A stretch of DNA of 64,000 nucleotides from Oligoflexales bacterium (GCA_045106415.1 JBGCEP010000006.1:1-64000), one strand, 5' to 3'. Counted from the stretch's first letter, positions 114-21,064 are shown. Made by a program: numbers and translations. The notes: a model not told the origin generated them from the sequence alone.

Positions 114-123
114 TACAATATTT

Positions 124-725: not shown

Positions 726-2069
726 ATGACAAAACAATCAAAATCATGGAGTAGCTGGTTTAGTTTTGTTGTCGTCTCTGTGGGTGCTGCAATTGGTTTA
801 GGGAACCTTTGGAAATTTCCATATATTGTGTGGAAATATGGAGGGGGTGCCTTTGTTGGAGTTTATCTTTTAGCTGTGTGTTGCATTGCTTTTCCCGTAT
901 TAGCTGCAGAGCTTTGCTTAGGCAAAGCAACTCGACAAGATGTTTTTGCGGCTTTCACTTCTTTAAGTCAAGGAAACTGGAAGTGGCGTGCTTTAGGGAT
1001 GATGATAGCAAGTACGCCGTTTATGATTCTTTCATATTATGGAACAGTGACAGGCTGGACCCTATACTACTCTGGGATGAGCGCTGTAGGTTTTTTGGAT
1101 GCTTCAAGTGTTGAAGCTGCAAATCATTTTTTCTTTGAACTTACAAATAATAGTATGTTGCAATTTTCCTTATTTTCCATCGTAATGTTGTTGTCAGGGG
1201 CGATACTGTTTATAGGGCTTAAAGGTCTTGAAAGTTGTGGAAAAATTTTATTACCACTTCTTTTTATCATGATGTTTTTAACGGCTTGTATTGTTTGTTC
1301 CCGTTACGGGGCTTACGACACTGTTATGTTCCTAACGGATTGGAATTTAGAAACATTAAGTTTTATTGGTGTTTTAGAGGCTTTTGGTCATGCGTTTTTA
1401 ACCCTTTCTCTAGGGATGGGCATCACCGTTGCTTATGGTTCTTACCTTGGGGCCGAAACATCTGTTTTTAGAGCTGCTTTAACGATTGCTGCCTTCGATA
1501 CAGTGAGTGCTCTGCTTGCATGTTTTATGATTTTTCCTATTTTATTCGGGACTGATATTGAAGTGAGTGAATCAACTGCCGTGTTGTTTACTTCTTTAGC
1601 TGTTGAGTATGGAAAATTTTCAGGAGGGGAATATTTAACAACGTTTTTCTTTTCCCTGACTTTTGTAGCAGCTTTGACATCTTGTGTGGCTTTACTAGAA
1701 GCTTGTTTGGCCACGTTTGAAGTGGGGTTTCACTGGACACGTTCGAAGAGTATTTGCGTGTCGATAGGTTTGATTTCTGGGATTGGTTGCCTAGGTATCG
1801 TTAGTCAGGGTTATGGCTTTAGGGTTTATGGTAAGTCTATGATGGATACGCTTGATTTTTGGTGTTCAACAATAGCAACTCCTTTAGGTGGAATGGCTGT
1901 GGCATGGTGTTGTGCAACAAAGCTCAAAAAAAGCATAAGAAGAGAGGCCTTGGCCTCACGATCTCATTCTGGTGTATGGTTTATTCCTTTGTGGGAAGGG
2001 TACTTGAAGTACATCTCACCTGTGCTTATTTTTGTTATTATTCTTTCTCAAGTTTATTTGAGTTTATAA
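726..2069 (+). CDS. Sodium-dependent transporter, neurotransmitter:sodium symporter (NSS/SNF) family
   Basis: Signature GAAIGLGNLWKFPY...GGGAF, AELCLG, ILSYY, FLTLSLGMG; about 11 hydrophobic segments. Confidence 0.93.
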   Translation: MTKQSKSWSSWFSFVVVSVGAAIGLGNLWKFPYIVWKYGGGAFVGVYLLAVCCIAFPVLAAELCLGKATRQDVFAAFTSLSQGNWKWRALGMMIASTPFMILSYYGTVTGWTLYYSGMSAVGFLDASSVEAANHFFFELTNNSMLQFSLFSIVMLLSGAILFIGLKGLESCGKILLPLLFIMMFLTACIVCSRYGAYDTVMFLTDWNLETLSFIGVLEAFGHAFLTLSLGMGITVAYGSYLGAETSVFRAALTIAAFDTVSALLACFMIFPILFGTDIEVSESTAVLFTSLAVEYGKFSGGEYLTTFFFSLTFVAALTSCVALLEACLATFEVGFHWTRSKSICVSIGLISGIGCLGIVSQGYGFRVYGKSMMDTLDFWCSTIATPLGGMAVAWCCATKLKKSIRREALASRSHSGVWFIPLWEGYLKYISPVLIFVIILSQVYLSL

Positions 2070-2405
2070 CGAAGTGATTAGGCATCTAATTTTGTAGTGG
2101 TTCTAAAATGAGCCAGTCTATTCTTATTTTAAGCAGATAATGTTTGGAGTGATGCAATAGCTCAATAGCTTCTCTTTGAGCAGGAGCCAAGAAGTTCTGA
2201 TGTGTTGCCTAAGGCAGAGTTTTATTTACGCATTCACAGATACCAAACATTGCTTCAAAATATAGATTTATCAACTTCTTAAAATTCTTAATGCGTCAAT
2301 AAAATAATCTAAACTATATAGCTAGGCGGGTATGCTGCTGATTTTGCAGCTGAGTGTTTATTAAAAAGAATTTAAAGTGATTTCATAGAGATCAAAATGA
2401 GAGTA

Positions 2406-2444
2406 AAACAGAAAGACCACGTTAAAAACGTGGTCTTTCTGTTT
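2406..2444 (-). terminator. Terminator hairpin downstream of rpsU (possibly bidirectional)
   Basis: Perfect 18-bp stem AAACAGAAAGACCACGTT/AACGTGGTCTTTCTGTTT with a 3-nt loop, about 20 nt after the rpsU stop. Confidence 0.8.
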
Positions 2445-2465
2445 ACTAAAAAAGTATGGTGTCGA

Positions 2466-2666
2466 TTAGACGAGACCAAGCTTTCTCATCTGTTTGACGC
2501 GGCGCTTGCGGGCTGCAATTGACTTCTTTTTGAGTCGTACAGATGGTTTCTCGTAATACATATTTTTTTTGAGATCACCAATAATACCGGCTTTTTCAAC
2601 TTGTTTTTTGAAAATTCTAAGTGACTTGTCTATAGGCTCGCCGACTCTAACGATAACTCCTGGCAT
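2466..2666 (-). CDS. rpsU: 30S ribosomal protein S21
   Basis: MPGVIVRVGEPIDKSLRIFKKQVEKAGI...YYEKPS...KKKSIAARKR; AAGGAG Shine-Dalgarno upstream. Confidence 0.97.
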   Translation of the reverse strand: MPGVIVRVGEPIDKSLRIFKKQVEKAGIIGDLKKNMYYEKPSVRLKKKSIAARKRRVKQMRKLGLV

Positions 2667-3143
2667 TCTTTCTCCTTCTTATACTCGAATGTTGCGCCAT
2701 CTTCTTAACCCAGAGGCGCTTTGACCTCAGAGAGAACTCTTTATACCCGAAAGAAAACAGACTGTCTAGTTGTAACTCTTAAATCAATGATAACAATAAA
2801 TAGCTTTAAAAACGAGAAGGGATGTGTGGCTAGTTTTTTCTTTTATTTCCCTTTAATATTAAATGTTTATGTTTTTGTATTAAAAATGGCAAAAGAGTCT
2901 GGTTTGGTCATGGTGTGATTTTTGAATGTTTTTAATGTGAGGCCTTTTATTCATTCTGCTAACTGAGTTTAGGTTGTACCAATGACTGTTGTTTGAAAGC
3001 TGGTGTGGAGTCTTGTCTTGAATCAAGTAGAAAAGGCATGCGTGTTGGTGTTGTTATTCAAAAAACTATGTTTATTAACTATATTGTACATAAAGATGAA
3101 TATCGAATAAAATAACGGGATGCAAGCTTTATAAGAAAGGCAA

Positions 3144-5408
3144 ATGATGAATGATCAGCAACACTTTTTTACTCCTTATGAAAATGAGTTTATAAGACGC
3201 TTGCAACCGATCTTGCCTCAAGAATTTGCACCAGAAGATATGATGTCAGCTATTTTATCTGTGACAGAAGACAGCTTGCAAAAAAATGATCAATACACAC
3301 TTTTCGATGTTGTGTGTCTTAGGAACTTAAAATATAGAATTTATAGAAGTCAGGGCTTACAGCATGATACTCGCGGGGGAGAAGTGATGCTCTCTGCTCG
3401 AGATCAAGCCTTTATTCAGAGGCTTCGAAAGAATTACTTTCCTAATAGTAGTGCGGATCCAGTTGCTTTCTTAAGAGCTATGAATATTTCGAAATTGAGA
3501 TTGATGAGTGGTGTTGGGCTTAAAACAACCACACGTTTGGCTCAGCTACGTAAGATGGTGATGAAAGAAGTTCGAACGCAAATGATGGCTGTGTGCTCAT
3601 CCTTACCTGACTTATCCTCTGTTGAGTTAGAATTGAACCGCAGAGAGAAAAAAGTAATCGAGAGATTGAGAAAGGCAATGTATGGGCCTTATCGCTCGGA
3701 TGCAGAGATGATTATGGCAGCTGGAGAACAGCTCTATGATGAAATTCCCGGTGGGGGGGTGCGGCAAACCGCTATCATTGAGAACCTCCAAGAGCGCATT
3801 ATTACAGAACATTATCGTTCTGATGATCAGATTGAATCTTTGCCTACAGATGATGTTCAACCAGGGGCAAGTTTTTCACAGATAGAAGATTACCTCATTG
3901 GAACTCTTTATAGGATATTTTTTAGTCTTAATCATACGAATCAAGCTATTTTCTCAATGGTGCATGGCTTCGGGACAGCTCGGCAATCACAGAAAAAAAC
4001 TGGTGAAATTATCAATGTCACTGAATCAAGAATATGCCAGTTGCGAACAGGGTTTTTTGATGAATACGCAGAAGGAGATTCTGTTTACGTTAAAAACTCA
4101 TCCTGGATTTCTCATGAATTGATATTTCAAGATATACCTAAAATATTTCCTAGACTTTCTTCTATGTTTCACGACTATCGTGGTTATTATAGTTGTTTAA
4201 GTAGTTTGATTCGTGTGAAGTCAAACTTGTTGCTGACACAAGATGCAAATGAAATGCCTCCTATTCCTGCAACTTTATTTGCTAGAATTTTTTCAGAAAT
4301 GACCGTCCCGTGTGCTGTTGAAGATTTTTACTACGTTTTATCAACACAATTTGGGTTTGATAAGTATCACTTCTGGTTAGCCTTAAATCGTCTAAAACAA
4401 GAAGGTCAACTCCGATGTGATGGAGATCAAATTACATGGGTCCGTTTGGATAAAATGCACAAAATTGAGCAAACAGCTTTGCTTTTTCATGAAGGTGTTT
4501 CAAGCTCAGAACTGGTGACTGCTGCAGGTTTGAAGAGCCCTTGGGTACGATCAGGGCGTGGTGGTGGTGATCGACATATTGTTGAATCAAATTCTAGGCT
4601 ATGCAGACTAAGTGAAGATCAGTTTTGTCATAAAAAATATTTTCATAAACTGCAGAAAAGATCATCTGAATATGACGCTGCCATTCAAAAAGCCCTGGAT
4701 CATAGTGGTCGCCTTTCTGTTGACTCTGAGGAGCTCTATCGGAATTCTCATGTCGCTATGGATCGGTATTTATTTAGGGAATATCTTTGTGATGGTGTTG
4801 CAAAAGGGTATTTAAAAGTTAGTGGTCGTCGTGCACAAGAAGTTTTTCCATACGCTCCGGAGTTTGCCAGCCATCAAGTACTGGCTTATTTGAAAAAATC
4901 TGGGCAACCAATGACAAGAGAGCAAGTTCTAGATCGCTTCCCTTTTCTAGAACGAGTCGATTTGATAGGGGTTTTTCATAACTTACTCGATGAAGGGCAA
5001 CTTGCGAGAGTCTCCCACCGGCAGTTTCAGTATTTTAAAAAAGCATATGCAGATATGAAGGTTGATCATATTAGACCTGTGATCGAATCAGTTGTTAATG
5101 GCTCAGAGTTAGCAATGGAGTCGGACTATTTAAAAGAGATCCTTAATAAAGAATTAAAAAAGAATTATAATAAATACCAATATTATTCTTTAGCAAGAAG
5201 TCTTCAAATTGAAAATGTAGTTGTTGATAAATTTTTGTTTTCGACCAAGAATCTTCCGTGGGATGGTCTTTTAGATGTTGTAGAGTCTGTGAGAGAAGAT
5301 GGGATGAATGCAAATGATATTATTGAAGAAGTGGAAAGCCTTGTAAAGGTGACATCTCATGTTAAAGATAATTTGATTCGATCATATCTTGTGAGACAAG
5401 GTTTTTGA
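3144..5408 (+). CDS. Large putative DNA-binding protein with RNAP alpha-CTD-like repeats and a sigma70 region-4-like HTH
   Basis: Repeats LSARDQAFIQRL...KLRLMSGVGLKT and LNRREKKVIERL...DEIPGGGVRQ. HTH-like SQKKTGEIINVTESRICQL. C-terminal half resembles winged-helix repeats. Confidence 0.55.
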   Translation: MMNDQQHFFTPYENEFIRRLQPILPQEFAPEDMMSAILSVTEDSLQKNDQYTLFDVVCLRNLKYRIYRSQGLQHDTRGGEVMLSARDQAFIQRLRKNYFPNSSADPVAFLRAMNISKLRLMSGVGLKTTTRLAQLRKMVMKEVRTQMMAVCSSLPDLSSVELELNRREKKVIERLRKAMYGPYRSDAEMIMAAGEQLYDEIPGGGVRQTAIIENLQERIITEHYRSDDQIESLPTDDVQPGASFSQIEDYLIGTLYRIFFSLNHTNQAIFSMVHGFGTARQSQKKTGEIINVTESRICQLRTGFFDEYAEGDSVYVKNSSWISHELIFQDIPKIFPRLSSMFHDYRGYYSCLSSLIRVKSNLLLTQDANEMPPIPATLFARIFSEMTVPCAVEDFYYVLSTQFGFDKYHFWLALNRLKQEGQLRCDGDQITWVRLDKMHKIEQTALLFHEGVSSSELVTAAGLKSPWVRSGRGGGDRHIVESNSRLCRLSEDQFCHKKYFHKLQKRSSEYDAAIQKALDHSGRLSVDSEELYRNSHVAMDRYLFREYLCDGVAKGYLKVSGRRAQEVFPYAPEFASHQVLAYLKKSGQPMTREQVLDRFPFLERVDLIGVFHNLLDEGQLARVSHRQFQYFKKAYADMKVDHIRPVIESVVNGSELAMESDYLKEILNKELKKNYNKYQYYSLARSLQIENVVVDKFLFSTKNLPWDGLLDVVESVREDGMNANDIIEEVESLVKVTSHVKDNLIRSYLVRQGF

Positions 5409-5414
5409 TGGTTT

Positions 5415-6470
5415 TTATTGCTCTTTTTGAACATCAATAAGTCCAATATTTATTTTTATTTGTTTTTTATCTCTTAATATTGTGATCTCAACTTTTTTTC
5501 CGATATTTTTCTGATCGAGGATGTGAATGAGATCATCAAAGTTTTTGACAAGCTGGTTGTCGATTGCTGTGATGACATCTCCTAGATGGATCTTCCCTGT
5601 TTGATCTCTGTAAGTTCCTCTTAGCTTTGCAAAATAGGCAGGGGTATTTTTTTGGACCATTTGTATGAGAACACCTTTGATGTTCATACGCTCAGCCACG
5701 TCATGGCCAAAAGCAATGATGCCAATTCCTGGCTGACGAGTTTTTCCATATCTTAAAATTTGATGAACGACCCTATGTATCGTTAGAGATGGAACTGCAA
5801 ATCCAATGCCGACAGAGGCACCGTTTTGGGATAAAATACTTGAATTCATACCGATGACTTCACCTGAAGAGTTTAATAGAGGTCCCCCAGAATTTCCAGG
5901 ATTCATTGCTGCATCGGTTTGAATCATATTGCGAATCGTTAACCCTCCAGGGCCAGGCACGGATCTTCCTAAAGCTGAAATGACACCAACGGTGAGAGTT
6001 TGTTCAAGGCCAAATGGACTTCCAATTGCGATGCTTTTTTGGCCAGGGTAAAGGCGGCCATGGTAGGGTTTGATGGGGTATAGTATTTTAGGCTGTGAAT
6101 TTAACTGTAGAACAGCAATATCTTTATGCTGAGAAGTGCCTAAAATCACAGCTTGATGAGTAGAGCCATCTATAAAGGAAACAAGAAGCTTGTCAGCTCC
6201 AGCCACAACATGAGCATTGGTGATAATGTGACCCTTGTCGTTCCACACAAAACCAGAACCACCACCTTGAGTTACCTCAGTAATACTTTCAGACCACTGA
6301 CCATTTGTTATTTGTTGAATATTACTGATGTTTACAACTGATTTAGACGCGTTGCGAAAAACTTGCATATTGTTTTTTTCGCATGCTTGATAGCCCTGTT
6401 GTGATAGTAGCTGAGTTGAAACAGATAAAAACAGGAAGATGTAGGCTGTAGTTTTTGCTTTTTTTCTCAT
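5415..6470 (-). CDS. Exported HtrA/DegP-family trypsin-like protease with one PDZ domain
   Basis: Signal peptide; ITNAHVV (His), KDIAVL (Asp), QTDAAMNPGNSGGPL (Ser); C-terminal PDZ (GDVITAID). Confidence 0.93.
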   Translation of the reverse strand: MRKKAKTTAYIFLFLSVSTQLLSQQGYQACEKNNMQVFRNASKSVVNISNIQQITNGQWSESITEVTQGGGSGFVWNDKGHIITNAHVVAGADKLLVSFIDGSTHQAVILGTSQHKDIAVLQLNSQPKILYPIKPYHGRLYPGQKSIAIGSPFGLEQTLTVGVISALGRSVPGPGGLTIRNMIQTDAAMNPGNSGGPLLNSSGEVIGMNSSILSQNGASVGIGFAVPSLTIHRVVHQILRYGKTRQPGIGIIAFGHDVAERMNIKGVLIQMVQKNTPAYFAKLRGTYRDQTGKIHLGDVITAIDNQLVKNFDDLIHILDQKNIGKKVEITILRDKKQIKINIGLIDVQKEQ

Positions 6471-6618
6471 AGTGTCTATCCTACTGTAATATATTGATGA
6501 TAGGCATCTATCGAAAATTGCCTATCGTGAATGGTCATGGAATGAAAAAATTACGGTTTTAAAGTACTGTATTTTTATTTGATGAATCTGATGTGGTTTA
6601 TTGCTCGAGGTACTGATG

Positions 6619-6663
6619 TCTTAAGTACCAATGATAGAAAAAAAGTATCATTGATACTTAAGA
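6619..6663. repeat. 18-bp inverted repeat (1 mismatch, 9-nt spacer)
   Basis: TCTTAAGTACCAATGATA ... TATCATTGATACTTAAGA. Confidence 0.85.
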
Positions 6664-6696
6664 GCTATTCTTCTCACTTATGAAGATTCTATGTTG

Positions 6697-6742
6697 GTAT
6701 GCTTATTAAAAATAACATTTATGATTTTTATAATAAGCATAC
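6697..6742. repeat. 12-bp perfect inverted repeat
   Basis: GTATGCTTATTA ... TAATAAGCATAC. Confidence 0.8.
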
Positions 6743-7034
6743 TGAAATTATTTGCAGATAGACAAAAATATTTAAAATTTGAGGGCTAGTAGCATGAACC
6801 TATTTGAGCTTCTAAGTTTTAGAAAGTTGATAATTTTATTCTTCTAAGTGGGATTAAATTTTTTTAAAATTGGATCGCTGTTAATAAAAATATTTTTTAC
6901 GAAGTTGTTTTATGTCGGAGTTATGGCATTGGTAATAGCGTTACAGGAATGAGAGAGCAAATTCATGAAGCTTTTCTTGAATGTTTTTAATATTCGTGAT
7001 TTGATGAGAATTCTCAATTCTTAAGAGGGGTCTT

Positions 7035-8444
7035 ATGAAAACGATAGTGTTTCTTATGAGTATCTACAGTGTACAAGCGTTTGCTGTATCTTCATTTCCT
7101 CCTCATATCAAAAATTTGTTGAAGTGGGAACTGGAATCTAATATCCGTAATGATCCAGAAAAACGTACTCACAGACTTTTTTCTTTGCAGCACTTTGAAA
7201 TCCCACTGCAAACATTAGAACAGTTTGACTATCGTCCTTTGTCTAAAAAAGCACTGGAAAGCTTTGTGATGATAAAAAGAGGGCGCAAATATGTACGCTG
7301 GATCATTAATCCTGAAGATAAGAAATACGCAGATCAATTAGAAAATGTTTTGCGAAGGTTAAACTGTGATACTAGGCGTTATTCTTATTATGTTGGTTAT
7401 TTAACGGCTTCGAGGAGCTTGATGATACAAGACCCTGACTTAGGCCACATTTTTTCAGTGAAAGTTTCAACAGACCATACGGGTGGTTTGTGGCAGAATA
7501 AAGGTGTTAACCGTGTTCAGGTTCAAAAAGCAGTTGGTGTGACTTCTTATTTAGAGGGGATTTTAAAGAAAATAAGCTCTCTACCACATGCTATCATTCT
7601 TCCTGAACCCCTTGGCTGGGTTTTTCATCACCAGGATGTTGAACAAGGAATGGTTATACGTAGTTATGACCGCTTAGATCCTGACTATCAATACCCTCCT
7701 GGTTTTTCAGTCATTCATGAACAAACAGGTGTTGACCTTGCTCAATCTCATAATCCTCATCAATACTGGAAAAAGCACTACGCAGGTGCCCTAGGGACTG
7801 CGATGGCTGAATTTATAGCATCCACAGGTTTAAGCTACAAATCAGCGCATTCGCAGCAGTTTTTAGTTGAGCTTGATCAGCACTCAAAACCGACAGGCCG
7901 AATTGTTATGCGAGACTTTAATGATAGTGTTGCTCTCAAGCCCCTTTTGAATCAGAGTGATTCAGGGCAAACTCTTTTAGACATGTGGTTACGTAAATAT
8001 CAAGAAAACCGGTTGTATGTACGATTTGGGATTTTTCACTCATCGAAAGAGAAAAGGTTTTTGGTTAAAAATATTTATAAGCCTTCTTGGACAGTGTCGA
8101 GCGATTCAGGTGAGTTTACTACGAAGTCGAGCTCATCTATTAAAAAGGGGCGTGTAGCTTGGAAAAATCATTTTGTTCAATCATTCGAAGAACGATTTTC
8201 CTTTTTGACGCAGATTGATATTCAAGAATTAACAAAATCTTTGAAAACTATGGGTGGTGTTTCTACGCATGCTGTACGGCGCTATAATATTACATCATCA
8301 ATTTTATCGAGAAAGCCTTCGATTTTATGGCGACGGCATGCTTCTGTTATGCAGTGCTTACAGTCGAGGACAAGGTCTTTAAGTTATGCAAATATGAATT
8401 GTGATATAAAAATAAACCATTTTTTGGGTAGGTTATATCCGTAA
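7035..8444 (+). CDS. Exported protein with IucA/IucC (NIS synthetase)-like motifs
   Basis: Signal peptide MKTIVFLMSIYSVQAFA. Motifs in NIS order: TASRS...SVKVS, IILPE, GMVIR, AHSQQFLVEL, IVMRDFND. Confidence 0.5.
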   Translation: MKTIVFLMSIYSVQAFAVSSFPPHIKNLLKWELESNIRNDPEKRTHRLFSLQHFEIPLQTLEQFDYRPLSKKALESFVMIKRGRKYVRWIINPEDKKYADQLENVLRRLNCDTRRYSYYVGYLTASRSLMIQDPDLGHIFSVKVSTDHTGGLWQNKGVNRVQVQKAVGVTSYLEGILKKISSLPHAIILPEPLGWVFHHQDVEQGMVIRSYDRLDPDYQYPPGFSVIHEQTGVDLAQSHNPHQYWKKHYAGALGTAMAEFIASTGLSYKSAHSQQFLVELDQHSKPTGRIVMRDFNDSVALKPLLNQSDSGQTLLDMWLRKYQENRLYVRFGIFHSSKEKRFLVKNIYKPSWTVSSDSGEFTTKSSSSIKKGRVAWKNHFVQSFEERFSFLTQIDIQELTKSLKTMGGVSTHAVRRYNITSSILSRKPSILWRRHASVMQCLQSRTRSLSYANMNCDIKINHFLGRLYP

Positions 8445-8478
8445 ATGAAGTCATTTGATTTCATTTGAAAAATTCTTC

Positions 8479-8505
8479 TTAATTTCTTTTTTTTAACGCC
8501 GATCA
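8479..8505 (+). promoter_or_regulatory. Putative sigma28 (FliA)-type promoter of the gasdermin-like gene
   Basis: TTAATTTC-N11-GCCGATCA, 30 nt upstream of ATG 8536; consensus is TAAAGTTT-N11-GCCGATAA. The -35 match is weak. Confidence 0.5.
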
Positions 8506-8535
8506 CTCCTCCTAAGGTTTAGAGGAGTGAGTGAT

Positions 8536-9396
8536 ATGATATTTACAAGAATTATGGCTTTTGTTTTTTTACTTCTTTCTTGTGGGAGCCCAGAAAAAGA
8601 GTTTGAAAAACAACTAAAAAAATTAGGCTATATTCCTTATTCGACTCCACTGCAACATGCAGGCACAGGGACTTTAGTGGGTGGACAACCTTCTCGTTTA
8701 TCTTTAGTGGCACCACCGGAGAGTTGTTTTCCCCGTTTTGATAATGATGATGCTGGTAAGTTAAGGCGTGATGATCCAACGATTCTTCCTGAAATTATGC
8801 GTGAAGTGAATATCGGAGCCAGTGCAAAAGCAGATTTTTTTGCGCAGTTAGCTGCTGGGATGCCCTCTATTCGTGCAGGATTTCATAGCAAATCTATTAA
8901 AAAAATTCATTTAAGGTTTGAAGGAGCAAGAGTTGAGTATTTTGATAGTTTAAGGCTGACTGAGTTTTATCGAAATGGAATGACAGATTTATGTAAAGAC
9001 TATCTAGAAAGAGTCGGATTTATGATCCAAGCTTTACGTGTTGAAAAGATGATTTTTACCTTTTATAAGAAAAAAACTGGGAAAGTAAATCTAGATGTTG
9101 AAGGTATTGAAAGTTTTCTTGATATTGGGTCAAATGTTGATTGGAGAATTGAAGAAGGAAGCTCTTTAATCATTACAACACCCAAATATATTGGCTACCA
9201 GCTAGGGCGTTTAAGAAGAAAAGATAATGGATTTGTTTTCAAAAGATCTACACGAATAAAGAAAGATAAATTTGTATGGAAAAAAGAACGAATTTTTAAT
9301 CCAGGCTTTAAGACGTTTCAATCTTATTTCGACTACGAGCCTTCTGGTGAAGAAAGGTTTTATTTTCCGATAGAAGAAACTTTGAAAATACGCTAA
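8536..9396 (+). CDS. Gasdermin-like lipoprotein (bacterial gasdermin motifs behind a lipoprotein signal peptide)
   Basis: SD AGAGGAG then ATG 8536. Signal MIFTRIMAFVFLLLS-C. Mature 271 aa with LKKLGYIPYSTP, two amphipathic hairpin regions, FMIQALRVEKMIFTF and TPKYIGYQLGRL in the order recalled for bacterial gasdermins. Confidence 0.7.
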   Translation: MIFTRIMAFVFLLLSCGSPEKEFEKQLKKLGYIPYSTPLQHAGTGTLVGGQPSRLSLVAPPESCFPRFDNDDAGKLRRDDPTILPEIMREVNIGASAKADFFAQLAAGMPSIRAGFHSKSIKKIHLRFEGARVEYFDSLRLTEFYRNGMTDLCKDYLERVGFMIQALRVEKMIFTFYKKKTGKVNLDVEGIESFLDIGSNVDWRIEEGSSLIITTPKYIGYQLGRLRRKDNGFVFKRSTRIKKDKFVWKKERIFNPGFKTFQSYFDYEPSGEERFYFPIEETLKIR

Positions 9397-9404
9397 GCCT
9401 ATTG

Positions 9405-10799
9405 CTAAGTGAGAGTGTTTTTTGTAGAAAAACGCTCTAACTTTAATTTAGTGCTTGTCGTAATTTGAGAATCAGCCTTAAGCTCTAAAATAAGAGATTT
9501 ATAAATTGAACTTTTTATAAGATTTAAGCGTTTTAAGCTTAAAGCAGAGTGGGCTATTTTTAAAGCATAGAATGGGTATTCTGGTATTTTTTTATAATTC
9601 AGAATGTAAGATATTAAAGGTATTGAGCTATATGTTGGTATTTCTCCATGAGGAGTCCACATTAAAATAGCATTTGCAATAGTTGGAGTGATAGGAGGAC
9701 GAGTTCTTCGGAGATGTTCTTGAAGAGCTGTGTAAGCGGATTTCTGCCCGTCATCGTTCTTGCTGTAAATTCGTGAAAGCATAGAGATCCAGCTGTGTAC
9801 TGAGAGCCCATGGAAAGACTCTGTTTGAGTCATGATTTTTTTGATAACTATAGTCCAGCGTTGTGCTTCTTTTGGGGTGGGGCAGTGTGTGATGAATTTT
9901 TTTGATCGTGTACAGTCAATCCAATGAGAAGCTGTTTGACATGCTGCTGTCGAGGTTTTAAAAATATCGACATCTCGAGTCGTTGTATTGACTTCTTCAC
10001 ATTTGGTGAGGAGCTTGGTGAAATAGTCTTCTTTGTTTAGTAGGTTGGGCTTGGTAGCTGCATTTCGGTATAGAGAGTCTTTTTGTAGGGCCTCTTCAAA
10101 TGTTGTTGTTTTGAAAATAGAATGAAATTGATCAAGACCAATGTTGTTATCAATAAAATTTGCGATTTGTATAGATGATGTGGAATAACTCCACGACTCA
10201 ATGTGCTGTTTGTTTTTACCATTGTGTTGTTTGATCGATGAGTGATGAATACCTAAAAGGTGACCATTTGCATTTAAAATCGCAGATCCACTACTTCCTG
10301 GTAAGGTTGCTGCGTGAATAAGCATGTTCTTATTTTCATAATTAACAAATCTACCAGTAGACCACTTTAAGTGACTAGCTCGAGGGTAGCCAAGAAAGTG
10401 GATGTCGGCATTTGTAGCTATTTCGTCTTTTGACAGAAGTATATAATTTTTTAGAAAAGGTTTCCTTATTTGGAAAATTGCGATGTCGGCATCTTTACTT
10501 AGAGCCCTTGGTTTGAGAAATACCTTTTTTTGTGAATGAGAGTTTTGATTAGTGTAAATAACTCGGCCGTAACAACCTTCTTGAGCACAGTGCTTATTGC
10601 CATATACGTGGTGATTTGTAATAAGATAAAATTTTTTTTTATGTTTAATAACAACAGAAGTTCCTGTGCCAAGACGAAAAACTGCTGTGCTTTTATTTGA
10701 AATTTTTTTAGGAGCTTCTGAAGTTAAATAGAATTGAGATGCATAAGTAGACATAGAAATTGTCATCAATATCATAAATGAGATGAATATATTCAGCAT
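9405..10799 (-). CDS. Exported trypsin-like serine protease with an unknown C-terminal helical domain
   Basis: Signal peptide; triad LITNHHV, DADIAIF, TLPGSSGSAI; GYP motif; about 230-aa C-terminal extension with four Cys. Confidence 0.85.
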   Translation of the reverse strand: MLNIFISFMILMTISMSTYASQFYLTSEAPKKISNKSTAVFRLGTGTSVVIKHKKKFYLITNHHVYGNKHCAQEGCYGRVIYTNQNSHSQKKVFLKPRALSKDADIAIFQIRKPFLKNYILLSKDEIATNADIHFLGYPRASHLKWSTGRFVNYENKNMLIHAATLPGSSGSAILNANGHLLGIHHSSIKQHNGKNKQHIESWSYSTSSIQIANFIDNNIGLDQFHSIFKTTTFEEALQKDSLYRNAATKPNLLNKEDYFTKLLTKCEEVNTTTRDVDIFKTSTAACQTASHWIDCTRSKKFITHCPTPKEAQRWTIVIKKIMTQTESFHGLSVHSWISMLSRIYSKNDDGQKSAYTALQEHLRRTRPPITPTIANAILMWTPHGEIPTYSSIPLISYILNYKKIPEYPFYALKIAHSALSLKRLNLIKSSIYKSLILELKADSQITTSTKLKLERFSTKNTLT

Positions 10800-10901
10800 A
10801 AGGAAGCCTATAGTGCTAGTGCAAAATTAACGATGAGCATAGCGCTAGAACTGCTATTGCACAATATGAATTGTGCAATAATGCAAAGATAAGGGAATTT
10901 A

Positions 10902-11168
10902 TTATTTTTCTTGAAGAAAGCGTAAGTCGGCCCACCCGCTTGGGAAGATAGGTAGCCACCATTGATTACGAATAGGCTCTGGCCGTCGCGATAAAATTGT
11001 TCCTTTAGGAACAAATTTTATACTGGCCCCTGCAGAGCTAGGATAAGAGCGGATATGAGTCGCGCTAATAAGAACTTTATAATATTTACTTTCCTTATTT
11101 ATTGTGGGGCGAGCATGAAGAGAGCTAGTGAAAAGCGTAGTGCTTAGTAGGACCCATTTGATGAACAA
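10902..11168 (-). CDS. Small exported SH3b-like protein
   Basis: Signal peptide, then HIRSYPS...VPKGT...WWLP...GWADLRFL, the bacterial SH3 pattern. AAGGAGG SD upstream. Confidence 0.65.
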   Translation of the reverse strand: MFIKWVLLSTTLFTSSLHARPTINKESKYYKVLISATHIRSYPSSAGASIKFVPKGTILSRRPEPIRNQWWLPIFPSGWADLRFLQEK

Positions 11169-11199
11169 TGAAATTCCTCCTTCTGGTTTTATAAAATCC

Positions 11200-11227
11200 G
11201 TATCGAAATATTGAAATAAAGTCTTTA
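11200..11227 (-). promoter_or_regulatory. Putative sigma28-type promoter
   Basis: Minus strand TAAAGACT-N12-TTCGATAC, about 30 nt upstream of the 11168 start. Confidence 0.5.
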
Positions 11228-11305
11228 GAGGAGGTCAGAAAGTTATTTTTATGCTGAAAGCTGCACTGAGTAATATCTTGATATTAAAGTTAAAATAGGA
11301 GTCGT

Positions 11306-11333
11306 TTAAGTTTTTTATTTTTTCTGTCGATGA
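11306..11333 (+). promoter_or_regulatory. Putative sigma28-type promoter
   Basis: TTAAGTTT-N12-GTCGATGA upstream of ATG 11359. Confidence 0.55.
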
Positions 11334-11358
11334 GGCTAATGTGAGTAGAGAGGTCAAT

Positions 11359-11814
11359 ATGATCCATCGATATTTTATATTATTTTTGATTTTTTCATTC
11401 CCGTTACCGGTTGCTTTTGGTGTTGTTTTTAATGCCCTACCCTCAACGTCTAGAATATTACGTTTGGAAAGTGTTGAGAAAACAACCTTGCAATGGGTGA
11501 CACTTGGGCATCAAAAAGAAATTATACTAACGACAACAGGTGAAAATCCCAATGGTATAGCAGTCTATGTTAGGCTTAAGTATCCTGATACTCCATATTG
11601 GAACCATTTTTTGAAAGAATGTCAAAGGAGTATGGAAAACCTTGTTGGTAAAAACTTTATTGATATTGGTCCAGTAAAATATCAAGGTCAAACCCTTACA
11701 AGACAAAATTTTAATACACACACGGTTGATCTGTGGAGACCTTGGTATGAAAATACGAAAAATATATTATTGAGTGCTCAGTTGAATCCATCGTGTCATA
11801 TCCAAGCTCATTAA
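11359..11814 (+). CDS. Hypothetical exported protein
   Basis: GAGG SD then ATG 11359; N-terminal hydrophobic signal; two Cys; no family motif recognised. Confidence 0.65.
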   Translation: MIHRYFILFLIFSFPLPVAFGVVFNALPSTSRILRLESVEKTTLQWVTLGHQKEIILTTTGENPNGIAVYVRLKYPDTPYWNHFLKECQRSMENLVGKNFIDIGPVKYQGQTLTRQNFNTHTVDLWRPWYENTKNILLSAQLNPSCHIQAH

Positions 11815-11973
11815 AAAAGTAACTTTTATTTTACTGTAACTTTTCTCCTAGCCTTTTTTTTCTAACCTAAATGCTATTGTTATCAATGACTTACTCTCCG
11901 ATTCGCTATAGATAAAGAGCAACACTGACGATGAACTTATAGAGATCATACATGATGCACTCGTGGAGTTTTT

Positions 11974-14900
11974 GTGAGTAGGGTTCATTTGAAATATTTG
12001 GTTTGTCAAATTCTTTGTCTTTGTATTTGGCCTGCCTCCATTATTCTGGGTCAGTCGAAAGGGCGAGTTGAGTCTCTATTAGCTGTTTCAGACTTTTCAG
12101 AAGCCGGGCTATTAGAAGTGTTGGGATATTTAGATGATGTAGAAAATGGTTCGTTAGAAAAACCCTATAGTGATCTTATTCAAAGTTATAAGGAAGATCT
12201 AAAAAAAGAGAATAAGAATACAAAAAAAATCTCATTGCTATTAAAAAAAGCTGCTGCTGAGCAGGCTCACGGGTTTGACGCATGGCAAAAGAAACTGGAG
12301 TCATATCAGCAAAAAATCGACTCTTGGCGTGGGTTTCAATCGAGAGAAATTCCTCAGGCCCCGTCATTGTATGATTTGATAAATCTTTTAAAAAAATCTG
12401 AACGCAGTTATCAAAAAATATTGCAAGAGAAATCATTAAGAGGGCATGTTAATACCAAATGGAAAATCGGTTTTTTAAAATCAGTTTACTCTCTAAAAGA
12501 GTCTAAAAAAATTCTTTTGAAAAGCTTTGAAATAAGTCGAGGAAGGCTAAAATCTAAAATAGCACTGGTTTTAGCTGAGATTTACTACAAGGAAGGGAAT
12601 AAAGCGAAAGCTAAACAAACCTGGAGATTTATTCTTTCTGGAAAATCAGGACAAGCGTCAAAAGCGGTGAAATCATATGCTTCATATCGGATGAGCTGGA
12701 TGCTTGCCCTAGAAGGCAAAAAAAGAAGTGCGATAAGGCAGATGACCCGCCTTTTGAAGTCTCTTAAAAAGAAAAATAGTTCTTTTTTAAGAAAAGAAAT
12801 AGCAAAAGATCTTGTGAAATTATCAGCAGATGCAAATTCGTTAAATTTAGTTTCCAGATTTAAAAAGTCGGAAGGATTTTCGAAAAATCATTATGAGCTT
12901 GCTTTGGAGAGGCGATCCTGGATTTTGTTAAATCAAAAAAAATATAGTTCAGCATTTAAAATACTCGATGATTTGCAAAAGAATAATCCTTCACATATTT
13001 ATTCTTTATTGAATCAGTTTCAAATTTTAAAGTTAAGTTATAGTACAAATAATTATCAATATATCCCTAGATTTCTGAAAATATTCAGCCAAAATTTAGA
13101 TGTTAAAAATATTTCAGATTTAGAAGAGAAGGGAATTAAAAAATCTTTTTTAAATAAATCGTTGAAGACTTGGGTTTCTATTGTTGCTAAAAATTTATAT
13201 AAAAAAAGTTCTTCAGATAAAAAAATACTTCCTATTTCAGCTTATACGCTGCAATTTTATATTCTTAGACATCCGAAAGATCGTAGTACTTCAATTTTTA
13301 AGTTCTATGCAGCTAAAAACTTAGAGTTATTGGGTCAAACCGAGAGTGCAATTGAATATTATTATTCAACTGCACTCTCTGGACCAAAAGAATTTATCAG
13401 GGAATCTTCTGATAAAATGATGTTGCTTCAAAGTAACCTTGTACGTAAGTATCTTGTGATGCAGCCTTATTTTTCACAAAAAAAATTTGGAATACCTAAG
13501 GAGTTAAGGCGTTATATTGACCTGGGTGATTCTTATATGAAAATAAGATCTGTGAGCCCCCGGCATACTCAAATAAGATTTGAAATAGCGAAAATATTTT
13601 CTAGATTTGGACATCATGTAAAAGCAAGGCAGAGGTATATGACTGTTGTGAACGGTCAACCCTCGTCAAAAGAAGCGAGAGCTTCAGTGACAGTTGTCCT
13701 GGATTTCTTATCGACATCTCGCCAATGGAGAGGTTTAGTGAGATGGAGTGAGGTGTACTTGCGATATGCTGTTGCTCTAGGTGGACTTCTTCAAAAATTT
13801 ATGACTGACCATTTGACAGTAGGTATGTGGCAAATAGCAGAAGAATACTTGAAAAAAAGACAGTATTTAGATGCAGCAAGAGCTTTTGAGAGTTTTCAGA
13901 GACGTCTTCCTAGGTCTAAACAAGCAGATTTAGCTTTAAATAAAGCCTCTCTTTTATATTTAAGTTTAGGAAAAGCCTCTCAAGGTATGAGTGTTGCTGA
14001 GCGTCTATTTCAAGTATATCCAGGTTCTAAATACCGAGGAAACTTAATGTTCCATGTTGCTGAAGCAGCAAGCGGAGTAGGTTTATATGAACGTGCAGCT
14101 ATTTATTATGAATCTTTCGTGGTGACTCTGCCTAAAGATTCCAGAGCTGCAGTTGCTTTATATCGAGCTGCGTCGCTTTATGGAGGGCGAGGAAACTTAG
14201 ATCGTAGAGCTCTTCTCTTAGAAAAATTAGCACAAATATACCCTTCGTCACCTCTTTCTTTAAATGCTTTATTGGAATCTGCCCGTTTAAGGTTGAACTT
14301 AGGGCAATTTGCTTTAGCCCAGAAGTTATTCAAGTTGTATATCCAAGATCCTCAGGCTGATTTAGATCATAAAATTTATGCACATGCTCAGGTTGGTCTT
14401 ATTGCGAAAAAATTTCAAAGGTCAACAAAAGATTTTCAACAAATTGAAAGTTTTCTTAGGTTAAAACCTATTACAACTGGTAAATCTGGGAGAAAAGTTT
14501 TAGCTGACTATCGCTACAATCAAATTGTACCATTTACAAAAGAATTTTCTACGTTGAAGATTAATTATTATGATTTTGATATTTATCAAAAATCATCAAA
14601 ATCTTATTTTGATGCTTTGAAAAGAATAGAGGCGTCATATGCTGCTGCTATTCAAATATCAGACCCTTCGAGTGCTGTGAGAGGTTGGTATCTTATGGCA
14701 AAAATTTATGAAGAAAGTTTGAAGCCTTTTCAAGAATCGTGGGATATGTCTGGTCTTCTTCCTGCTGAGGTGCGAAGAATTGAGCAAGCTAAAAATAATA
14801 TTATAAAAAATCTAAAGTCAAAAGTTTTGATGAGTTATCAGAATTCCTGGGGAATATCTCTAAAATATCGTGTTTTTAGTAATGAAAGGCAAGAGTCTTT

Positions 14901-14997
14901 TGTCAGATTGACAAAACTACAACCAGGCCGTTATAGAAACGTTCATGAAGAGACTCTGTTGCCTGTTGCTGATTCATTTATGCTTTCTGGAGGATAG
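11974..14997 (+). CDS. Large exported TPR protein, resembling gliding-motility AgmU/GltD
   Basis: Signal peptide; 1007 aa of TPR-like helical repeats (YPGSKYR, YPSSPLS turns); size and pairing with a TPR lipoprotein. Confidence 0.6.
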   Translation: MSRVHLKYLVCQILCLCIWPASIILGQSKGRVESLLAVSDFSEAGLLEVLGYLDDVENGSLEKPYSDLIQSYKEDLKKENKNTKKISLLLKKAAAEQAHGFDAWQKKLESYQQKIDSWRGFQSREIPQAPSLYDLINLLKKSERSYQKILQEKSLRGHVNTKWKIGFLKSVYSLKESKKILLKSFEISRGRLKSKIALVLAEIYYKEGNKAKAKQTWRFILSGKSGQASKAVKSYASYRMSWMLALEGKKRSAIRQMTRLLKSLKKKNSSFLRKEIAKDLVKLSADANSLNLVSRFKKSEGFSKNHYELALERRSWILLNQKKYSSAFKILDDLQKNNPSHIYSLLNQFQILKLSYSTNNYQYIPRFLKIFSQNLDVKNISDLEEKGIKKSFLNKSLKTWVSIVAKNLYKKSSSDKKILPISAYTLQFYILRHPKDRSTSIFKFYAAKNLELLGQTESAIEYYYSTALSGPKEFIRESSDKMMLLQSNLVRKYLVMQPYFSQKKFGIPKELRRYIDLGDSYMKIRSVSPRHTQIRFEIAKIFSRFGHHVKARQRYMTVVNGQPSSKEARASVTVVLDFLSTSRQWRGLVRWSEVYLRYAVALGGLLQKFMTDHLTVGMWQIAEEYLKKRQYLDAARAFESFQRRLPRSKQADLALNKASLLYLSLGKASQGMSVAERLFQVYPGSKYRGNLMFHVAEAASGVGLYERAAIYYESFVVTLPKDSRAAVALYRAASLYGGRGNLDRRALLLEKLAQIYPSSPLSLNALLESARLRLNLGQFALAQKLFKLYIQDPQADLDHKIYAHAQVGLIAKKFQRSTKDFQQIESFLRLKPITTGKSGRKVLADYRYNQIVPFTKEFSTLKINYYDFDIYQKSSKSYFDALKRIEASYAAAIQISDPSSAVRGWYLMAKIYEESLKPFQESWDMSGLLPAEVRRIEQAKNNIIKNLKSKVLMSYQNSWGISLKYRVFSNERQESFVRLTKLQPGRYRNVHEETLLPVADSFMLSGG

Positions 14998-15010
14998 AGA
15001 ATTGTCTTTG

Positions 15011-16024
15011 ATGCGCATATTAATTTTTATCATATTTAGTGGCTGTCAGTCAGACCCAGGTCTTTTTTATCATGAAACAGGGGATTCTTATATTGTTTAT
15101 AGTGGTGGTGACCTACGGTCGACATTGACTTATATTCAAAATCAACACATTAAAGATCAAGTTAAAACCCACCTTCAAAAAATAAAGAAAAATCCATGGT
15201 CTATAAATGATTATAATCAATTGGCGTATTTATATTTATCCTCAGGGCAAATTAATCAAGCGCATAAAATTGTTGAAAAAGCATTGAAAATTGATTTTAG
15301 ATCAAGGAGATCACGTATACTGAAAGCAGCTGTTGCATATCGAAAAAATAGAGATATGGAGGCCAAGATGCTTTTAGAGCTACTTGGAGGTGAAAGAGCT
15401 CCTGAGGCAGAAGTCTCTTTTTATCTTTCTAGTATCGCATTAAGAAAAGGGGACACAGAGGAAAGTCGAAGACTTTTGCAAATCGCAATTAGGAAAAACC
15501 CCAAATTTGTTGCCGCATACATGAATTTAGGGTTGTTTTATTTGAAAAATTATCAGGCAGACCTTGCGCGTTCAAATTTTAAGAAGGTTTTGAGACTGAT
15601 ACCAAATCATGATGATGCACGACTGCACCTTGCTATTTTAGATGCAATGTCTAAGCGGTATCAAAAAGCGCGTGATGTCTACGATGATCTTCATTCGAAA
15701 TATCCAAATAATGGTATGATTATATTAAATCGTGGAGTTTTAAGTTTAAAGCAAAACCAGATTTCAGATGCTTATGATGATCTTCTTTATTACCTAGACT
15801 CTATCCCTGAATATCAAAAATCTCGACATTCTGCGCAAACTTTGTGGTCAGGGATTCAATCGATGAATAAAAGAAAAAAAAGTATAAGTTATACTGAAGA
15901 GATTAAAATAAATGAAAAAATCAATAACCTTAGATCATCTTTTCGAAATGTTGACTTAGATGTTGTAGAAACAGTATCTGGTTTTGTGTTTACCCCGAAA
16001 GGGGCAAAACCTATTGGTATTTAA
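15011..16024 (+). CDS. TPR lipoprotein, resembling AglT/GltE
   Basis: Lipobox IFSG-C; canonical TPRs (NPKFVAAYMNLGLFYL, PNHDDARLHLAIL). Confidence 0.65.
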   Translation: MRILIFIIFSGCQSDPGLFYHETGDSYIVYSGGDLRSTLTYIQNQHIKDQVKTHLQKIKKNPWSINDYNQLAYLYLSSGQINQAHKIVEKALKIDFRSRRSRILKAAVAYRKNRDMEAKMLLELLGGERAPEAEVSFYLSSIALRKGDTEESRRLLQIAIRKNPKFVAAYMNLGLFYLKNYQADLARSNFKKVLRLIPNHDDARLHLAILDAMSKRYQKARDVYDDLHSKYPNNGMIILNRGVLSLKQNQISDAYDDLLYYLDSIPEYQKSRHSAQTLWSGIQSMNKRKKSISYTEEIKINEKINNLRSSFRNVDLDVVETVSGFVFTPKGAKPIGI

Positions 16025-16039
16025 AACAGGAGGATTCAA

Positions 16040-16975
16040 ATGTCTGTCGTTAGAAAATCACAAATTGTGAGCTTAATTGTTACCAAAGATCGAGAGTTTA
16101 AAACAAGAGCTGTGAACTTTTTTAATGGTGTGGCTTTCCACGCGGAAAAACTATCCTCTGAAGATTTAGAAACGGCTCAGCTTCAAGTCATGGGTAGGAA
16201 AGAAATTATGAACCTTGTGATTGATGCAAGGTCAACAGAGCTAAAGCCAGAAGACTTATTTAAAGAATGTGTTGCTTTAGGAAAGAAAAAACCTGGCCTT
16301 ATGATGCTTGTATATTTTCCAGAAGAGTCTTGTGAGAAAATGTCTTTTTTAGAAAAATCTCCTGATTATCTTTTGTTTAGAGATCTTCCTTTTGACAAAG
16401 TTCATTATAATGACTGTTTCCACGGTCGAGGGAAAGGTGGAGGGGGTTTTAATAATTTTATGGGAGCTCATCAACCTTTAGACGCGATGGCCAAAAAAGT
16501 TGAAGAAAAAGAAGAAAGTAAGAAACCCAATATTATAGCTTTTGAAGCATCATCACATGTTCGAGATACAATTCAATTGTTGAACTCAATAAAAGAAAAT
16601 TCAGAAGATCTTCAAAGTTTTTTTGATTTTGGACAGAGGTTCAATGGAATTACAGGTGCTTTTGCATATTTAGGTGACCGTCCAGGTTGGTCTCAAATTC
16701 GTGCGATGTCAGTTGTGATTGATGAAGTATGCTTAGCTTATACGAAACATCCTGAGTGGAAATCTCTTGATGAAAAGCATCTCAATATTATTAAAAGCGC
16801 AGCTAAAAATGTATATCTTATTTTAAAAACTTTACGAGAAATGACTCCTTTAAATGATGATGTTTTAAAGGATTGTCAGAAAATTCTAGAAGAAAGAAAA
16901 ATAATGACTGAGATTCCTCAAAAAGAATCACAGACTCAAGATGAAGTTGATGCCCTCCTGTCAACGCTTACATAG
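16040..16975 (+). CDS. Signalling-type protein: degenerate receiver-like domain, His-less HPt-like bundle and CheZ-like C-terminal peptide
   Basis: AGGAGG SD. FGQRFNGITGAFAYLG at the HPt HxxKG position. C-terminus SQTQDEVDALLSTL. Confidence 0.5.
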   Translation: MSVVRKSQIVSLIVTKDREFKTRAVNFFNGVAFHAEKLSSEDLETAQLQVMGRKEIMNLVIDARSTELKPEDLFKECVALGKKKPGLMMLVYFPEESCEKMSFLEKSPDYLLFRDLPFDKVHYNDCFHGRGKGGGGFNNFMGAHQPLDAMAKKVEEKEESKKPNIIAFEASSHVRDTIQLLNSIKENSEDLQSFFDFGQRFNGITGAFAYLGDRPGWSQIRAMSVVIDEVCLAYTKHPEWKSLDEKHLNIIKSAAKNVYLILKTLREMTPLNDDVLKDCQKILEERKIMTEIPQKESQTQDEVDALLSTLT

Positions 16976-17813
16976 ATTCATGTTGTACTAATTTTTTAAA
17001 TAGTTTTTTTTCTTGAAAAGACAGAGATGATATTAAAAAATTTAACGGCTTTTCCTTTTGTAGGATCGTAAAAAATTTTTTCTTACCTAGGGATGTTGCG
17101 ATGAAATCGAGTGTTTTGTATGATTTTTCATATTTCCAACGGCCTTTCCATTTATTTAAAGAAGTATGTTCAAAACTTTTATCTTGAATCATTTTTTTAA
17201 AACTTTTTATTTTTTTAGGATAAATCTTTTCAAGATATTGAATTGCTATCCACTCACTAAGTCCTTCAGAAAACCATTGAGGATGATTTTGTTCAAGCCC
17301 ATGTGATAATTCATGAATCAATGTCTTATGTGTTATGAAATTCCAAGGTTGTTTTTTAATTAAAATAAATTTATAGACAGGATTGTAGCTGCCTAGCTTT
17401 TCCAGTGAATTTACAATAAATACAGCATTTAGTGAGTAGTTTGGAAAATATTTTTTTATATAATGAGCGTATGATATTGTCTCTTCTCTAATTTTTTTCT
17501 CTATATTGTGATCAGAGCTATGATTAACAATTTTTATTGGAAGGCTCGAGCAGTGCCCTTCAGCAGAAGGAAACCATAACCTTTTTAATCTCTGATGGAA
17601 TACAAACCATTGAGATTGAGAAGAGTGTTGCGTGGGCAGTTGATTGTGATGGAAGATTTTTTTTATAGTGATGTGAAAATGATTTTGATCTGGGAGAGGA
17701 AGATCATATGTTACGTAATGGAGTTGGCCTTTGTGGTTTTGTTCCCATGTTAGTAATGGACAGGCTGAGAGAATGGTTGATTGTAAAATTATGAAAATAA
17801 GTAATTTTTTCAT
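16968..17813 (-). CDS. Exported zinc metallopeptidase (gluzincin, MA clan)
   Basis: LIHELSHG followed by WFSEGLSEW; N-terminal signal. Confidence 0.75.
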   Translation of the reverse strand: MKKLLIFIILQSTILSACPLLTWEQNHKGQLHYVTYDLPLPDQNHFHITIKKIFHHNQLPTQHSSQSQWFVFHQRLKRLWFPSAEGHCSSLPIKIVNHSSDHNIEKKIREETISYAHYIKKYFPNYSLNAVFIVNSLEKLGSYNPVYKFILIKKQPWNFITHKTLIHELSHGLEQNHPQWFSEGLSEWIAIQYLEKIYPKKIKSFKKMIQDKSFEHTSLNKWKGRWKYEKSYKTLDFIATSLGKKKFFTILQKEKPLNFLISSLSFQEKKLFKKLVQHESM

Positions 17814-17838
17814 GTAATTCCCGCAGAGGTTTATAGAA

Positions 17839-20995: not shown

Positions 20996-21064
20996 GTTTT
21001 TCCTTTCTCACATGATGTCTTTTTTATTTTCAAATGAACTTTAGGTCTTATGCTTTCATATCAT

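Follow-up and report, generated by a model that had tools for sequence, protein, structure and literature searches.

In published accounts gasdermins are executioners working from within the cell. The bacterial ones are cytoplasmic proteins that attack the inner membrane, and they typically share an operon with a caspase-like, trypsin-like or subtilase protease gene, often fused to repeat or NACHT domains. In bacteria they have been defined, in the available part of the study by Johnson et al. (10.1101/2021.06.07.447441), by their fold, a palmitoylated cysteine, a C-terminal peptide of ~20 amino acids (aa) and activation by an adjacent protease; the palmitoyl thioester is placed there on C3 of the Bradyrhizobium protein and C4 of the Vitiosangium protein, a position at which the cysteine is conserved in most bacterial gasdermins. 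Pyroptolysins, which are gasdermin–CDC chimeras, are introduced as outside-acting toxins in the accessible portion of a second preprint (10.64898/2026.10.05.756811), whose main text contains no mention of lipoproteins, secretion (secret*) or the periplasm. The present work concerns a gasdermin-like gene (8536..9396, plus strand) of an Oligoflexales bacterium, located on a 64,000-nucleotide (nt) stretch of its assembly (GCA_045106415.1 JBGCEP010000006.1:1-64000; the whole of this stretch is referred to as the window), and the trypsin-like protease gene that converges on it. A preliminary description of this DNA had proposed that both products are exported and that a complete gasdermin–protease activation circuit might therefore have been relocated to the envelope. 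The gene product was found to be a member of a large, exported gasdermin-like family, and its pairing with the protease was not conserved.

Sequence matches to the window protein were weak and were exclusively to gasdermins. The PADLOC bGSDM model, which has no curated cut-off, matched residues 93-238 (E 8.9e-6), NCBIfam prok_gasdermin (NF051890) matched at E 1.1e-4, and phmmer against PDB sequences returned the Runella gasdermin at E 0.012-0.015. When a profile of 55 homologues was compared with PDB, four sequences were matched and all four were bacterial gasdermins (E ~1e-3). A Pfam library copy without PF26164 gave no match for the window protein and none that was usable for eight homologues. 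PF26164 (Bact_GSDM according to the ESM Atlas) is precomputed on 28 of 114 homologues, the window protein not being one of them; the fold assignment itself is not new, because this Pfam family already touches part of the group. The distant, exported, full-length relatives P0247-P0259 matched the PADLOC bGSDM model better than the window protein did, down to E 1.3e-14, and they therefore tie the exported family to canonical gasdermins.

Structure prediction led to the same assignment. The AlphaFold2 model of the window protein had a mean pLDDT of 82.3 and a pTM of 0.76, and all of its nine top Foldseek matches were gasdermins (7n51, E 7.1e-9). With VIA-align the model was matched to 7n51 at Z 13.2 (root-mean-square deviation 4.2, 214 residues aligned, model residues 20..246), to 7n52 at Z 12.9 and to 7n50 at Z 11.9; rows 1-26 of this comparison held gasdermins only, and CDC/MACPF toxins came next at Z <=5. 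The relative P0081 (32% identity) was modelled from a different alignment (pLDDT 79.5), and this second model gave the same ranking, with Z 12.7 (7n51), 11.7 and 11.4; here too the leading rows held nothing but gasdermins (24-26 rows across the two models). Helices between the core strands were present in both models, and identity to the solved gasdermins was 11-18%. On the basis of the modelled fold and of the weak but exclusive sequence matches, the window protein is a gasdermin homologue, and the gasdermin-like label given to it earlier holds at the level of the fold in Foldseek, in VIA-align and in the second model.

The N-terminus of the window protein reads MIFTRIMAFVFLLLS-C-G, in which a lipobox cysteine comes after a hydrophobic stretch (residues are numbered throughout in the 289-aa form that starts at GTG 8527). 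The protein has exactly three cysteines, at positions 19, 67 and 156. Among 55 aligned homologues Cys19 was kept in at least 90% and Cys67 and Cys156 were invariant, and the same pattern was seen for all three in a 72-sequence alignment. A heuristic that was applied to full-length sequences only, and that looks for a cysteine directly after a hydrophobic N-terminal stretch, was satisfied by at least 101 of 111 full-length homologues and by at least 74 of the 93 full-length representatives of an exhaustive profile search; most of the relatives that it missed were seen by eye to have such a cysteine or to look like truncated gene calls. Signal or lipobox N-termini were also present in P0247-P0259, the most distant full-length members listed. 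To judge from its sequence, the window protein is exported, by means of a signal peptide and a lipobox whose cysteine is near-invariant in the family. One subgroup of ~258 aa (P0046, P0047, P0049, P0053, P0058 and P0062) has no lipobox cysteine and no C-terminal tail, and has an N-terminus of the signal-peptidase-I type (ASA followed by NPL); it may represent a soluble, secreted version.

In the VIA-align superpositions, the aligned part of the model begins at residue 19-20, opposite residues 1-6 in the chains of the three bacterial gasdermins; in P0081, whose lipobox cysteine is residue 27, the first aligned pair is residue 33 and chain residue 4 of 7n51. The lipobox cysteine lies ~2-6 residues before the equivalent of C3/C4, a distance that is approximate as the ranges give only the first and last aligned residues. 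Cys19 is a predicted site of lipidation, and because the near-invariant cysteine is a lipobox cysteine the lipid chemistry would be diacylglyceryl/N-acyl. A disulfide between Cys67 and Cys156 is suggested by the fact that this conserved pair sits in an exported protein. The cytoplasmic Runella gasdermin has no cysteine at the position aligned to Cys156, the only one of the pair that the alignment covers.

The C-terminal end was compared with the cleavage sites of known gasdermins. Chain residue 233, the last of the active Vitiosangium form, is aligned near residue 244 of P0081, and the Runella cleavage after L247 maps near window residue 249 in the phmmer alignment; the cleavage-equivalent site is at about residues 242-249 and separates the last two conserved strands (window residues 238-245 and 248-254). 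The last of these strands contains F249-x-W251, the family consensus being DxFxFE. Beyond F257 the tail is variable among relatives, and some members have none. Its terminal motif is '...FVPxxF(K/R)VxxE(D/E)VxxIE/IR' in the window-like subgroup and '...D(E/N)N(A/S)(V/I)(Y/F)L(K/E)' in most Bacteriovoracia-type members. Parts of the tail had a pLDDT <50 in the window model. The terminal motif was modelled as a strand in P0081 at a pLDDT of ~58-64 only, and this was not taken as evidence that the tail docks.

The exhaustive profile search returned 306 representative clusters at E<=1e-3, 165 of them at E<=1e-10, with members in Oligoflexia, Bacteriovoracaceae, Halobacteriovoraceae, Pseudobdellovibrionaceae, Silvanigrellaceae and more distant lineages. 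Within the phylum of the window the family profile matched 29 of 131 genomes (20 of 83 high-quality genomes), usually with one copy per genome. The pattern was patchy by taxonomic family (f1, 10/15; f5, 3/3; f19, 13/33; f6, 0/12; f16, 0/22), and all 13 matches in f19 belonged to a single genus, g54. Searches for longer or fused relatives of 588-2000 aa found none, which is weak evidence. The genome of the window encodes a paralogue, 32% identical, on contig 45 (G000:C45:62263-63003, minus strand; locus L002/L058); its neighbours at ±1, a PepSY_TM protein and a T2SSE-type secretion ATPase, include no protease. Only the window gene of this genome, not the paralogue, was reached by the PADLOC bGSDM model at E<=0.01. 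Two matches from the same taxonomic family, G007:C1:251798-252571 and G008:C19:14149-14910, contain one in-frame stop each (TGA and TAG, respectively) and could be pseudogenes or assembly errors.

A comparison of the pair across genomes, which the preliminary description had named as a check, gave no sign of conservation. The protease, the 88-aa open reading frame (ORF) upstream of it, the HtrA-type protease, the 469-aa and 157-aa ORFs and two TPR proteins of the window were used as tblastn queries, and no relative of any of them was detected in the 43 other family loci, which comprised 42 genome contigs encoding family members and the locus of the paralogue. Nor was any detected with the same queries in 10 further loci from the same phylum, four of which repeat earlier contigs; the protease had a relative in none of the 49 distinct other loci that encode a family member. 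A Pfam scan of genes at ±1 and ±2 covered 144 of 147 neighbours of >=100 aa (three very long ORFs and 13 shorter ones were left out), and these were unrelated housekeeping genes, including LpxD, tRNA synthetases, ThiI, aminotransferases, TGT, PLD and permeases. Peptidases were represented by a single trypsin (L033, +2), an S9 peptidase (L004, +2) and a Met-zincin (L016, -2); in none of the 43 loci did a trypsin-like gene occupy ±1, and no neighbour family recurred in more than six loci. In the reverse direction, none of the four loci encoding protease relatives (L055, L056, L057 and L060) contained a member of the gasdermin-like family, and G006, alone in the taxonomic family in encoding a full-length relative of the protease, lacks any gasdermin-like gene. 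The two genes of the window cannot form one operon because they are convergent. In these sequence comparisons a circuit linking the protease with its gasdermin-like neighbour is unsupported by conservation in either direction, and the convergent protease is probably an unrelated neighbour and not a dedicated activator. Of the relocated circuit that had been proposed, the gasdermin homologue and its export were retained and the link to the neighbouring protease was not.

Several points weigh against the reading favoured here, which on balance is judged probable, namely that gene 8536..9396 encodes an envelope, lipid-anchored gasdermin homologue that has no dedicated protease operon and is probably membrane-active outside the cytoplasm, with the protease a chance neighbour. 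Signal peptides and lipoboxes were judged by eye and by the crude heuristic, not by a trained predictor. Neither P0002, the closest relative at 60% identity, nor any of the three protease homologues (P0116-P0118) has its contig among the loci examined. By chance a trypsin-like gene would flank ~0.4% of genes (six such genes among ~2,700, a gene number estimated from 2.95 Mb), and a subgroup-conserved terminal motif behind a variable linker is the layout of a cleavable inhibitory peptide, which would call for some protease. Pore formation is read from the modelled fold, and sharing a fold does not establish a function. The fold assignment itself has to be set against an NF051890 score of 22.1 bits, far under the equivalog cut-off of 100, and against Foldseek TM-scores to 7n51 that were moderate (0.49/0.53). 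Together with the low identity to solved gasdermins, these last values would be expected if the likeness were convergent or an artefact of prediction and the family unrelated to gasdermins. This is scarcely credible, as the PDB profile search and each of three independent sequence libraries gave gasdermins and nothing else, two models from different alignments agree, the Z-scores of 11-13 stand well above the first non-gasdermin rows, and distant members of the clade reach E 1e-14 on the bGSDM model.

The doubt about function carries more weight. An envelope lipoprotein that has the gasdermin fold and never forms pores, being permanently closed and serving a structural, lipid-binding or partner-binding role, would suit the housekeeping context of the family, which has no defence or toxin–immunity neighbours and no small immunity-like gene conserved alongside, and it would suit genes that are mostly single-copy and seem to be vertically kept within genera, as in g54. 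Strong conservation of surface motifs and of the cysteine pair points the same way, as do the members that have no tail and so no obvious cleavable inhibitor. An ESM Atlas look-alike cluster bears the automatic name 'TamB domain'; this name was rejected, as Pfam reproduced neither TamB nor any other family in the window protein or in eight homologues. All of the top structural matches are pore formers, gasdermins being followed by CDC/MACPF proteins, and the inter-strand helices are kept, which in gasdermins refold into membrane hairpins according to the accessible part of the published work. A protein that never forms pores is accordingly regarded as unlikely, without being dismissed. The chance of adjacency and the layout of the tail bear instead on a lineage-specific pair, in which the exported protease 9405..10799 would be the cognate activator, cutting the C-terminal segment of the gasdermin and using its helical C-terminal domain as a sensor. 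The presence of only six trypsin-like genes in the genome leaves room for such a pairing, and so do the stops lying 8 nt apart, the export-type N-termini and conserved cysteines of both proteins, and the HEAT/ARM-like C-terminal part of the protease (pTM 0.43, a lead only), since canonical bGSDM proteases are fused to repeat domains in the portion of the literature that is available. Convergent orientation means that there is no shared transcript, however, and the absence of the pair from the family loci, from the protease-relative loci and from G006, which has the protease relative alone, argues against it, as does the paralogue on contig 45. Moreover, the 43 loci provide ~86 immediate flanks, so that one trypsin-like neighbour is about what would be expected at a background of 0.3-1%, and the window had been picked for the adjacency. 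A dedicated pair confined to this lineage is considered improbable.

If the favoured reading of an envelope-anchored gasdermin homologue with a chance protease neighbour is correct, the protein would be exported by Sec and cleaved by signal peptidase II, so that the mature form would start at acylated Cys19. In its resting state it would adopt the closed gasdermin conformation within the envelope, with the Cys67-Cys156 disulfide probably acting as a staple. It might be triggered when an exported protease removes the C-terminal segment, when the disulfide is reduced or when a target membrane is touched; thereafter the protein may act as a pore former or membrane disrupter on a membrane reached from outside the cytoplasm, whether of its own envelope or of another cell. 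Both the trigger and the action from outside are proposed from the fold and by analogy. Export would be the rule in the large clade, and the clade would have no dedicated protease-sensor gene alongside. A broader version of this proposal, offered tentatively as a possibility, is that of a widespread clade of envelope gasdermins in which the lipoprotein pathway supplies the N-terminal lipid, with which cytoplasmic gasdermins modify themselves, and the disulfide, in many members also a C-terminal peptide, keeps the closed state; such proteins would be outward-facing pore formers with which Oligoflexia and predatory Bacteriovoracia permeabilise either other cells or the outer envelope of their own, and no dedicated sensor-protease operon would be involved.

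The features of the locus are listed in Table 1. A mechanical ORF call for the gasdermin-like gene (8527..9396, plus strand, 289 aa) starts at GTG 8527; ATG 8536 is the likelier start, because AGAGGAG lies 8 bases 5' of it and because its product is identical to the database gene call P0001 (286 aa). The stop codon, TAA at 9394-9396, is followed by a gap of 8 nt (9397-9404) and then by the stop of the convergent protease ORF, so that the spacing reported in the preliminary description was read again in the sequence. The terminator-like hairpin lies just 3' of the gasdermin-like stop and within the 3' end of the protease gene; it came from a scan for a consensus only, in which six sites were seen against 2.7 expected.

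Table 1. Features of the gasdermin-like locus; positions refer to the window
Feature	Position	Strand	Remarks
HtrA-type protease (Trypsin_2 + PDZ)	5415..6470	-	Pfam; context only
469-aa ORF with signal-like N-terminus	7035..8444	+	91 nt upstream of ATG 8536, same strand
Shine-Dalgarno-like AGAGGAG	8521..8527	+	Read directly; 8 nt before ATG 8536
Gene for exported gasdermin-fold protein, predicted lipoprotein	8536..9396	+	286 aa from ATG 8536
Signal peptide ending in lipobox L-L-S-C	8536..8583	+	Cys19 codon, 8581-8583; sequence read
Gasdermin-fold core, residues 20-257	8584..9297	+	Holds invariant Cys67, Cys156 and motif TTPKYIGYQLGRLR; AlphaFold2 model, alignment columns
Variable C-terminal tail, residues 258-289	9298..9393	+	Terminal sequence ...RFYFPIEETLKIR
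Convergent trypsin-like serine protease, 464 aa	9405..10799	-	Trypsin_2 match
Terminator-like hairpin, 12 pairs and T-rich tail	9412..9438	+	Consensus scan only
88-aa ORF with hydrophobic N-terminus, upstream of protease	10902..11168	-	ORF list; same strand as protease

The protease gene itself was largely as first described. Its Trypsin_2 domain occupies residues 46-184 (window 10248-10664) and scores 48.2 bits against a Pfam cut-off of 27.6, and the catalytic residues H63/H64, D105 and S170 are invariant in a 4-sequence alignment, which bears out the intact triad. Six cysteines are also invariant in this alignment, consistent with export. The signal peptide attributed to the protein is less secure: translation from the first ATG gives a hydrophobic N-terminus, but the database gene call starts at M16, without that stretch; a signal-like N-terminus was also seen in one of three homologues (P0118). 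For the C-terminal 250 residues, which contain cysteines (about residues 215-464, 9408-10157), no Pfam family was found, in agreement with the statement that this domain belongs to no known family; its helical character, with a resemblance to HEAT/ARM-type repeats, was seen only in the low-confidence ESM Atlas model. The protease shares the Trypsin_2 domain and the His/Asp/Ser residues with HtrA/DegP-type and other Trypsin_2 (PA clan) proteases, whereas unlike the HtrA/DegP type it has no PDZ domain and has instead the 250-residue helical C-terminal part. Its family is very rare, with three homologues at 26-27% identity among 5.8 billion clusters and one metagenome locus.

The genome had been called protease-rich, a view that was not upheld by the assembly (2.95 Mb, 93.8% complete), in which only six Trypsin_2 loci, five of them also matching PF00089, and two subtilase loci were found. 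Two of the six trypsin-like loci lie within 4 kb of the gasdermin-like gene, and the HtrA protease was present 2 kb upstream as stated. One of the two subtilase (Peptidase_S8) loci is also in the window (21311..22132, minus strand), 12 kb from the gasdermin-like gene.

Among the other neighbours, the 88-aa ORF had been taken for an exported SH3b-like gene. Its hydrophobic N-terminus was confirmed, and no SH3b domain was recovered: Pfam gave no family at E<=10, in a search whose HMMER filters discard most weak matches, and NCBIfam and PADLOC gave none either. Co-transcription of the 469-aa ORF with the gasdermin-like gene is possible; this ORF matched no family in Pfam, NCBIfam or PADLOC and had no relative in any related locus. 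Farther out, a 754-aa ORF (3144..5408, plus strand) gave sub-threshold matches only (Sigma70_r4, E 0.014), and the 157-aa ORF (11341..11814, plus strand) has a hydrophobic N-terminus and no family. Over the whole window (1..64000) GC skew was positive in 31 of 32 2-kb bins, the cumulative skew climbing almost monotonically, and GC content, between 0.28 and 0.44, did not change abruptly at the gasdermin locus.

Lipobox-bearing gasdermins were not found to be described in the literature searched, with subscription journals and bioRxiv supplements outside its scope, and no relevant paper on a gasdermin in Bdellovibrio was found by title or abstract start. The pairing that gave this locus the look of a relocated pyroptosis circuit is not conserved, which is sobering for the original claim. 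Because the clade is common among predatory bacteria and their relatives, its members are candidates for prey- or envelope-permeabilising factors. A possible working analogy is provided by the lipoprotein-type MACPF toxins of Bacteroides (the BSAP family), exported, surface- or vesicle-associated proteins of pore-forming fold that are used against other bacteria. Their fold differs from that of the window protein, to which CDC/MACPF chains were matched at Z 3-5, and no homology is claimed.

Compared with the bacterial gasdermins of known structure (7n50, 7n51 and 7n52), the window protein has the resting-conformation fold (Z 11.9-13.2), a similar size (~260-290 aa), a lipid-bearing cysteine, here predicted from the lipobox, at the N-terminal end of the fold, and the helices between the strands. 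It also has a short C-terminal segment after the core with an F-x-F/W motif (F249 and W251), which recalls F245/F247 of the Bradyrhizobium inhibitory peptide in the available part of the original study (10.1101/2021.06.07.447441). The differences are that bacterial gasdermins are described in that part as cytoplasmic, with the thioester palmitoyl on C3/C4, whereas the window protein is exported by a signal peptide and lipobox; that the window family has two extra invariant cysteines; that it has neither a protease nor a NACHT/repeat-protease gene in an operon and no defence-island context; and that some of its members have no tail past the last conserved strand. With pyroptolysins, as presented in the accessible portion of the preprint (10.64898/2026.10.05.756811), it shares a module of gasdermin fold whose action from outside the target cell's cytoplasm is proposed or has been shown, and environmental Gram-negative hosts. 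Pyroptolysins, however, have a membrane-targeting, CDC-like beta-sandwich domain fused to the gasdermin module in that account, whereas the window protein (286/289 aa) has only ~30 residues after the core. If true, a stand-alone clade with near-universal Sec/lipobox signals would represent a second, simpler route of the gasdermin fold out of the cytoplasm, one in which the lipid anchor is provided by the lipoprotein pathway.

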